Of a stretch of DNA of 64,000 nucleotides, positions 23,663 to 59,028 are shown piece by piece. The notes under the pieces are model-generated. The model was not told the DNA's origin. It ran no database searches and saw only the letters and a program-made list of their open reading frames with translations. A program made the position numbers and the translations under genes. The stretch's first letter is position 1. Each line of letters starts with the position of its first letter. Source of the stretch: Oscillospiraceae bacterium (GTDB lineage: Bacteria; Bacillota; Clostridia; Oscillospirales; Ruminococcaceae). The stretch is taken from positions 103,340-167,339 of the forward strand of contig JAETSI010000001.1 in the NCBI GenBank assembly GCA_021769725.1. Direction: 5' to 3'.

Positions 23663-23772
23663 TTATATCCTTCTTTACATTATAATATATTTTATTATAA
23701 CACTAAATTACCCGATTTGTCAAATGCAAAAAACTTTGGTAATTTTTTTGTATATAAATTTTTAAAAATATA

Positions 23773-58328: not shown

Positions 58329-58359
58329 AGCTCTGTACCGAGGTACAGAGCTGTTTTTT
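58329..58359. terminator. bidirectional terminator (clpX / Cys-rich micro-gene)
   Basis: agctctgtacc/ggtacagagct 11-bp stem followed by T6. Confidence 0.75.
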
Positions 58360-58368
58360 ATGGGCAGA

Positions 58369-58530
58369 TTAGCATCCGCAGCCGCAGTCGTTGTTGTTGT
58401 TGCCGCATCCGCAGTTGTTATCGTTGCCGCATCCGCAGCCACAGCCGCCGTTTGCGAAGAGGATCACGAAGAGAATGATCACCAGGATAAGGCACCAGTT
58501 ATTTCCACAGCCAAAGTTTGAATTACACAT
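58369..58530 (-). CDS. 53-aa Cys/Gly/Asn-rich tiny membrane protein (below ORF-track cutoff)
   Basis: My own translation of the - strand: MCNSNFGCGNNWCLILVIILFVILFANGGCGCGCGNDNNCGCGNNNNDCGCGC; AAGGAG 9 nt upstream of the ATG; terminator follows. Confidence 0.6.
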   Translation of the reverse strand: MCNSNFGCGNNWCLILVIILFVILFANGGCGCGCGNDNNCGCGNNNNDCGCGC

Positions 58531-58673
58531 AAAGAACAACTCCTTAAAAGATGTATTTGAAGCGTTTTTGTTTTCGCTTCATAGTACATAGTATGCTATG
58601 GCGAAAAAAGTGTTACAAAAATTTTTCGTATCATTCGTTTCGACTGTTATCGCACTGCTGATGTGGCATAATA

Positions 58674-58702
58674 ATTATAGGTAACCTCTAAAACAATGTC
58701 AA
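58674..58702 (-). promoter_or_regulatory. consensus promoter TTGACA-17-TATAAT pointing toward Cys-rich micro-gene
   Basis: Read on the - strand: TTGACA 58702-58697, TATAAT 58679-58674; embedded in the left inverted arm. Confidence 0.6.
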
Positions 58703-59025
58703 CAACTTAGTGGGTACGCCGCTCCCAACGGTCGCCCGTACCCTCTGTCACTGTGTGACATCTCCCTACACCGTAGGGAGTCACCCACACACCTGCCAAA
58801 GGGGAGTACACGCCTAACTGGCGCCCGTCCCCTCTGTCACTTGGTGACATCTCCCCACACTGTGGGGAGTCACCCTTTGGAATCCCGGTATTAATTATTT
58901 TCAGTACCTCGTAAAGAGGTACTGGAAATAATCAGGGCAGAAGCCCATAGAATGAACACCCATTAAAAAGAGTGCAAGGGAACAAAATCTACTAAGCTGC
59001 TGACATTGTTTCAGAGGCTGCCTAT
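58677..59025. repeat. composite inverted-repeat / tandem-repeat element (35-nt arms, 2 x 89-nt units, 17-bp hairpin)
   Basis: Arms 58677-58711 and 58991-59025 are complementary at 30/35 positions plus one wobble; unit cores 58733-58786 and 58822-58875 are 48/54 identical. Confidence 0.85.
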
Positions 59026-59028
59026 ATA
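59000..59028 (+). promoter_or_regulatory. promoter cTGACA-17-TATATA pointing toward clpC-like gene
   Basis: Embedded in the right inverted arm; homologous to the promoter at 58674-58702. Confidence 0.5.

Follow-up and report, generated by a model that had tools for sequence, protein, structure and literature searches.

The locus studied here raises the question of why the short spacer between two divergent genes should hold a hairpin-rich, non-coding block of about 350 bp. It lies in a 64,000-nt stretch (the window, meaning the whole stretch that was analysed) of contig JAETSI010000001.1 from an Oscillospiraceae bacterium (assembly GCA_021769725.1, positions 103,340 to 167,339), and the block (58676-59026 of the window) separates a small Cys-rich gene on the - strand from a clpC-like gene on the + strand. 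A preliminary description had proposed three interpretations for it: a structured non-coding RNA, a large operator shared by the two genes, or a mosaic repeat that supplies promoters, similar to transposable elements of miniature size with inverted repeats (MITEs) and to the BOX elements of pneumococci. As shown below, the block is an insertion acquired in the ancestor of this Ruminococcus species. It is probably a nested, non-coding, hairpin-rich repeat, in which a MITE-like carrier holds one or two 76-nt units and affects nearby promoters as a side effect. The third interpretation is thus the one that gained ground, through the insertion itself, the variable number of inner units, the interspersed occurrence of the unit and the consensus promoter at the left arm.

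Insertion at the clpC spacer and strain alleles

The gene order around the block (tig-clpP-clpX-small Cys-rich gene on the - strand-clpC-like) is the same in relatives whose ClpC proteins are 92, 88, 85 and 70% identical to the one in the window. The block is absent from a Ruminococcus metagenome-assembled genome (MAG; L001, ClpC 70%) found by a search with the ClpC-like protein, which has this gene order and a 176-nt spacer. The empty site is also found in relatives with ClpC at 92% (L156-158), 88% (L159-161) and 85% (L162-163), all with an uninterrupted spacer of ~180 nt; the empty site is documented in six relatives, the closer of which were found via a protein database and then looked up on their contigs. 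For relatives at 91% and 83%, gene calls run through the short spacer without interruption. The empty site reads ...GTGGCATAATATTATA|TGTAGCACAAAGACT... (ATTATA|TGTAG around the insertion point) and the filled site in the window reads ...GTGGCATAATAATTATA[GGTAACC...GGCTGCC]TATATACAAAGACT..., the flanks of which align cleanly with the relatives. In the 99-100% group, all contigs that reach the site contain the block.

Within the block, a repeat finder returned inverted arms of 36 nt (58676-58711 and 58991-59026; 86% complementary), confirming the arms of the preliminary description, and a direct repeat of 63 nt (58724-58786 and 58813-58875; spacing 89, identity 86%). The two units with an 89-nt period are beyond chance: a pattern made from the 24-mer common to both units has 2 matches versus 0.00 expected in shuffled sequences, both copies carry the palindromes TGTCAC-N3-GTGACA and CTCCCYAC-N3-GTRGGGAG, and the copies differ by a compensatory change from a T-A to a C-G pair. 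The pairing of ccaaaggg (58796-58803) with ccctttgg (58873-58880), also described before, is readable in the sequence and is part of the predicted fold. The 17-bp hairpin (94% complementary) and the GC-rich core (55-63% GC versus 30-40% in the flanks) were found as described. A supposed bias of the arm mismatches toward G.U pairing in a - strand transcript did not hold up, as 4 of 5 transition mismatches are too few to carry statistical weight. The arm ends read TATAGGTAACCTCT..., and the whole element folds far more stably than its shuffled versions, both as the + strand (z -10.7) and as the - strand (z -11.2). The sole open reading frame (ORF) in the block is a 47-aa stop-free repeat artefact. 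We also considered the 17-bp hairpin as a terminator and rejected it, as on both strands the T-run is upstream and the A-run downstream of the hairpin.

The core has three alleles in the species, which do not differ in their arms, TATA flanks or right module. The window allele contains two units (u1 and u2). A contig from a JGI metagenome (L108) contains a single hybrid unit, with its left half from u1 and its right half from u2, as expected if the two units recombined unequally within the shared GTGACATCTCCC. In L121-L124, four assemblies of MAGs or metagenomes, u1 is followed by a plain hairpin (ccAAAGGGGAgtaaaTCCCCTTTg) and there is no unit 2; at the position equivalent to 58796-58808 they read ccaaaggggagtaaatcccctttg, and in the window the loop of that hairpin holds the 64-nt unit 2. 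Unit number thus varies by strain: unit 2 was inserted into a hairpin loop, and units recombined unequally with each other. Table 1 lists the parts of the block together with the promoter-like sites at its ends.

Table 1. Parts of the inserted block and adjoining promoter-like sites, in window coordinates
Feature	Position	Strand	Remarks
Extended -10-like TGgCATAAT, candidate native promoter of the clpC-like gene	58666..58674	+	just outside the insertion; promoter called from sequence
Putative hybrid outward promoter TTGACA-17-TATAAT	58674..58702	-	12/12 consensus match
Left TATA flank	58676..58679	.	candidate target-site duplication or outermost 4 nt of the inverted repeat
Left arm of carrier, terminal inverted repeat	58680..58711	.	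identical in all species alleles
Unit 1 of the three-hairpin repeat, with linker	58712..58795	+	model R1 58715-58790, 79.9 bits, E 1e-18; present in all alleles
Hairpins of unit 1: H0 within GGGTAC/GTACCC stem, H1 TGTCAC/GTGACA, H2 CTCCCTAC/GTAGGGAG			fold prediction
Small carrier hairpin, 5' half (ccAAAGGGGAgta)	58796..58808	+	loop holds unit 2 in the window
Unit 2, strain-variable 64-nt insertion (CACGCC...GGGGAGTCA)	58809..58872	+	model R1 58804-58879, 91.2 bits
Small carrier hairpin, 3' half (ccctttgg)	58873..58880	+	pairs with 58796-58803 in the predicted fold; in all alleles
17-bp hairpin, right module of carrier	58894..58932	.	inverted repeat; z -9.5 folded as DNA
Rest of right module, including GGGC-AGAA-GCCC hairpin (58935-58946)	58933..58990	.	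kept in all species alleles; ~60% similar in L120
Right arm of carrier, terminal inverted repeat	58991..59022	.	pairs with left arm
Weak outward promoter-like site CTGACA-17-TATATA	59000..59028	+	faces the clpC-like gene; no final T in -10; unlisted by consensus scan
Right TATA flank	59023..59026	.	TATA present on both sides of the block

A three-hairpin unit common to Ruminococcus-type chromosomes and gut phages

The inner unit is an interspersed family common to Ruminococcus-type chromosomes and gut phages, where it occupies unrelated sites including coding sequence. We described it by a covariance model (R1; 76 positions and 19 pairs in three hairpins, H0, H1 and H2), which finds exactly two copies in the window, recovers all phage copies, and finds 0 copies in the clpC loci of other taxa (731 kb). 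In another Ruminococcus-like chromosome (L164), R1 detects 3.5 copies in tandem within an intergenic region of 1.5 kb. Scans of viral contigs with exact patterns matched 17, 23 and 43 contigs, with at least six distinct flanking contexts; one of the host contigs carries genes for terminase, portal and prohead protease and is a true phage. Unit 2 is the same as the phage copies across the core save one loop base, and three unannotated fecal phage records match a query with the whole element, in the unit only. Searching with peptides from the four stop-free frames returned ~80 ORF clusters, mostly tiny spurious gut-metagenome calls, several of them with tandem arrays. We found no description in the literature searched for the unit sequence, for its translated peptide, or for such repeats in Ruminococcus or Oscillospiraceae.

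The hairpins are well conserved as structures. The 29 distinct copies share conserved linkers (CCCGTCCCCTC, ATCT and TCACCC), and their stems change in pairs, with variants CACC/GGTG, CTCC/GGAG, CGCC/GGCG and CACG/CGTG for H0; TGTCAC/GTGACA, TGTCGC/GCGACA, TGTCCC/GGGACA and TGTCAGC/GCTGACA for H1; and CTCCCCAC/GTGGGGAG, CTCCCCGC/GCGGGGAG and CTCCCTAC/GTAGGGAG for H2. In the alignment 93.9% of the pair cells are paired, a share that drops to 33-50% on sliding the partners, and both sides have changed in six pairs, a number reached by 1 of 500 shuffles. The covariation score is 0.173 versus 0.062 in shuffles; these figures speak for the fold. Only 3 of 539 pair cells are G-U, and with G-U nearly absent the constraint looks equal on both strands; this hints at a constraint at the level of DNA or single-stranded DNA rather than RNA.

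Gain and loss of the unit can be followed among near-identical phage contigs (L091, L094, L109 and others), in which a C5 DNA methylase gene contains 0, 1 or 2 units at two sites. At site 1 the unit adds 57 nt in frame (19 residues), turning SEG-L-SGYS into SEG-DSPQCGEMSRSDRGDGTVRV-SGYS. At site 2, the empty form of which encodes the canonical AQYWGVPQRRKRIF motif, two different variants were inserted independently and in opposite orientations, and both shift the frame; given these frame-shifting insertions, methylase activity may differ between the phage variants. Among further phage copies, one lies in frame close to where an ORF of unknown function starts, and another forms the end of a convergent ORF. 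Gain and loss among near-identical phages, both orientations and gene disruption mark the unit as selfish in its behaviour.

Comparison of filled and empty unit sites shows no target duplication; 1-6 target bases are lost, and the junctions share 3-8 nt (GTA, ACA or GGGGCACT on the left and a C-run on the right). Three of the four unit targets resemble hairpins made of a G-run, a loop and a C-run.

Two side observations concern the unit. On the L164 chromosome, region 2150-2930 contains a second module three times (CCTCCCTTGTAAAGGGAGG and GGTTGCCGAAGGCAAGCC hairpins, period ~120), followed by the 3.5 tandem three-hairpin units; there is a dockerin gene nearby, and a 144-aa ORF called in the repeat region is a repeat artefact. 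Furthermore, all Logan short-read contigs of the clpC locus (L081-L090 and L125-L127) end within the element, at 58749, 58787, 58853, 58890 or 58895, and unit 2 has stretches of >31 nt in common with phage-borne copies, so that the repeat breaks up de Bruijn assemblies.

Promoters and host genes

Two sequence blocks beside the insertion are invariant in relatives with ClpC at 70-100%: on the side of clpC ttcgactgttatcgcac...gtggcataata, and on that of the small gene gtgttacaaa...catagtacatagtatgc. They are likely the native control regions of the two genes and lie outside the element, which sits 2-5 nt downstream of TGgCATAAT. The preliminary description placed an outward-facing promoter in each arm; the probable native promoters of both genes lie outside the element and are conserved in relatives. 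The two arm sites fared unequally: the left one matches the consensus at all 12 positions, and the right one is weak. Even the left site is only in part a property of the element, which supplies its -35 (TTGACA); its -10 (ATTATA on the + strand) is part of the target and stands already in the empty site of the relatives. Insertion elements classically create hybrid outward promoters in this way, by supplying a -35 beside an existing -10. The window contains five perfect TTGACA-17/18-TATAAT sites versus 0.065 expected (77-fold enrichment), which suggests that the organism uses canonical sigma-70-type promoters. The other four, at 1349 and 3345 (+ strand) and at 23723 and 63920 (- strand), are probably real strong promoters.

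From this arrangement we can predict how the insertion would act on its neighbours. By setting TTGACA 17 nt from the pre-existing TATAAT, the left arm would create a strong outward promoter toward the small gene, and the added transcription would be constitutive, starting upstream of the promoter-like block that is conserved at this gene. Toward the clpC-like gene, mRNA initiated at the native TGgCATAAT would have its 5' end within the left arm and a structured leader of 350 nt, in which the transcribed 35-bp arm duplex would be a plausible target of RNase III; alternatively, the weak right-arm site may take over, leaving the clpC-like gene with an 18-nt leader.

The small gene (58369-58530, - strand) encodes a 53-aa Cys/Gly/Asn-rich membrane-type protein (MCNSNFGCGNNWC...CGCGC) and is syntenic in all relatives; the protein has no Pfam or NCBIfam match. 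Public gene callers annotate a 53-aa ORF on the opposite strand (58360-58521) instead, which is why the exact Cys-rich product is not on record. The block gtgttacaaa...gCATACTAT (- strand) upstream of this gene resembles a promoter for a mother-cell sporulation sigma factor. Between clpX and the small gene, a perfect 10-bp hairpin with T-runs on both strands (58329-58352) forms a bidirectional terminator for this convergent pair.

No Rfam family matches the window at gathering thresholds, and none relevant appears at E up to 10, in line with the earlier remark that the block was not recognised as any named RNA or repeat family. Apart from two weak chance hits, the permissive search gave only a uup-like hairpin that lies outside the element (58330-58360); this sub-threshold hit is due to the terminator hairpin between clpX and the small gene. 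A tRNA/tmRNA check found none.

The carrier and its possible origins

Without its units the carrier is ~175 nt long and consists of the two arms and the right module with the 17-bp hairpin. We infer that it entered the short spacer as a MITE-like element bounded by terminal inverted arms of 32-36 nt with TATA on either side; the hairpins would act at the DNA or single-strand level for the propagation of the element itself, rather than for the host. A further sign of the carrier comes from an ENA contig (L120), which is identical to the species allele up to ...cccctttggaa and continues into a right module of ~60% similarity. In L120 (3290-3440) this diverged right half joins the clpX side of the locus to an unrelated gene for an FAD-dependent oxidoreductase, and its 17-bp hairpin keeps all 17 pairs via 4 double compensatory changes. 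The diverged module implies that a second, diverged family member exists somewhere. The best database relatives of the oxidoreductase are only 74% identical, and their loci contain no intergenic element; L120 may have arisen by recombination of two copies of the element or may be an assembly chimera (k141).

Several observations weigh against a MITE-like carrier, or against parts of the explanation built on it. A pattern of the arms has 0 hits in viral contigs and finds only this locus in JGI metagenomes; arms and right module are absent from plasmid records and from 1.27 Mb of compared loci; and a degenerate pattern of the 17-bp hairpin module has 0 hits in viral contigs. Although multiple dispersed copies define MITEs, the 64-kb window has no second arm-bounded copy, and no transposase with matching ends was identified. 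TATA is found on both sides of the block, but it is its own reverse complement, so a target-site duplication and the end of an inverted repeat look the same; the flanks could reflect a 2-4-bp target duplication or simply the tip of the inverted repeat. The unit junctions, with their base loss and microhomology and without duplication, fit classical transposition poorly, covariation in the unit stems could also come from a function at the RNA level, and the promoter and leader effects are sequence predictions only. A MITE-like element is the best-supported reading of the carrier, whose transposon-type mobility is presumed.

Correia elements, BOX elements and other small repeats offer points of comparison. 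Correia elements duplicate TA at insertion. In Neisseria, these elements (also called CREE or NEMIS) have 26-bp arms and functional outward promoters at their ends, and their arm duplex is a substrate of RNase III (PMC3049150). The block is similar in its inverted arms (32-36 nt), TA-containing flanks and outward promoter sequences, the latter predicted here from sequence; in contrast to it, Correia elements are 100-156 bp long, have hundreds of copies and contain no nested tandem units. BOX elements of Streptococcus pneumoniae (boxA-(boxB)n-boxC) are parasitic repeats of low mobility with reported effects on neighbouring genes (PMC3049150). They share with the block a modular A-(B)n-C layout, complementary ends, a self-folding B module, a strain-variable number of B modules and stable stem-loops predicted if transcribed. 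The likeness is one of layout in a different host lineage, and we do not claim membership in this or any other of the repeat families compared here. Moreover, there are ~100 BOX copies compared with one arm-bounded copy known here, and the B unit here is an independent interspersed repeat, which is found alone in phage genes and in arrays elsewhere.

The unit itself can be compared with REP, BIME and REPIN sequences, including GTAG- and CGTC-tagged REP, which occur as singles, dimers or mosaic clusters and are sometimes intragenic (PMC3733652). Small GC-rich hairpins, a short conserved motif and compensating stems are common to both, and CGTC is part of the unit's conserved linker; however, the unit consists of three different hairpins (76 nt) whereas a REP is a single palindrome of 20-40 bp. 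CGTC-tagged REP are defined by a single 8-9-bp stem, a 4-5-nt loop and CGTC directly at the end, and the unit falls outside this definition, as its CGTC lies in linker CCCGTCCCCTC, 5 nt from H1, and the loops of H1 and H2 are 3 nt. No RAYT-type transposase was found, and no genome-wide search for one was made. Rickettsia palindromic elements are hairpin repeats that enter coding sequence, where they may stay in frame, and add 20-30 residues (PMC3733652); the phage methylase copy that adds 19 residues in frame is similar, but other copies here shift the frame, and lineage and sequence are unrelated.

A bolder version of the nested-repeat explanation, which we put forward only tentatively, is that the 76-nt unit represents an undescribed class of tiny mobile elements of Oscillospiraceae chromosomes and phages. 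Such elements might enter hairpin-like targets with a G-run and a C-run, free of duplication and via microhomology (by template switching, single-strand cutting of the HUH type or reverse transcription of a tRNA-sized RNA), and one would here be nested in an arm-bearing element that rewired two promoters.

Among the readings that do without a mobile carrier, the strongest, in our judgement a rather doubtful one, is that the block was built in place at a hot spot, as a BIME-like mosaic of successive small insertions and duplications, with the arms as an inverted duplication of one module. It would account for arms that were never found elsewhere (in viral contigs, JGI metagenomes or the 1.27 Mb of loci) and agrees with unit 2, which demonstrably entered an existing hairpin loop, with the long intergenic arrays of several module types and no arms in L164, and with duplication-free unit junctions that have microhomology. 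However, no intermediates are seen, the relatives with ClpC at 92% being fully empty and all strains of the species having both arms and the right module. The sharp ends of the block with TATA on both sides, and the diverged homologue of the right module that adjoins a different gene in L120, also argue against assembly in place.

That the block is a dedicated structured RNA, either a cis-regulatory leader of the clpC-like gene or a - strand small RNA closed by the arm duplex, we consider improbable. The very low folding energies on both strands would fit such an RNA; the covarying stems and conserved linkers would fit it as well, and transcription from the native promoter would run across the block along the + strand. 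Against this, the block is missing from all relatives that have the same genes and promoter blocks, the number of units differs between strains, and phage coding sequence contains the unit in either orientation, with a gene disrupted by it. The lack of an Rfam match even at E up to 10 adds to this, and so few G-U pairs would be unusual for selection on RNA only.

The shared operator fares still worse and is very unlikely: the two near-identical arms, as duplicated regulator sites, do overlap promoter-like hexamers facing each gene, but the block is absent where the genes and their native promoter blocks are conserved, and by eye there is no match to the CtsR operator consensus. Least credible of all is a promoter switch that works by inversion, with the 279 bp between the 36-nt inverted repeats that lie between the divergent genes being flipped by a site-specific recombinase: all full-length assemblies (L108, L121-L124 and the window) and, over the part that they cover, the partial Logan contigs have one internal orientation, inversion would change nothing with the promoter-like sites in the arms facing outward, and the neighbours (clpX, the small gene, clpC and sortase-region genes) include no adjacent recombinase gene.

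For this species, the tempting view of the block as a riboswitch-like leader or operator conserved at clpC is a false lead and can be dropped; the insertion is specific to its lineage and most likely changed the transcription of a Clp ATPase gene and of a small gene with a probable link to sporulation. Short-read assemblies break at such repeats, which also yield spurious ORF calls and are usable as strain markers. The unit is a repeat family, found neither in Rfam nor in the literature searched, that links Ruminococcus chromosomes with human-gut phages, and its insertion chemistry is the only part of these results that could become a real discovery.

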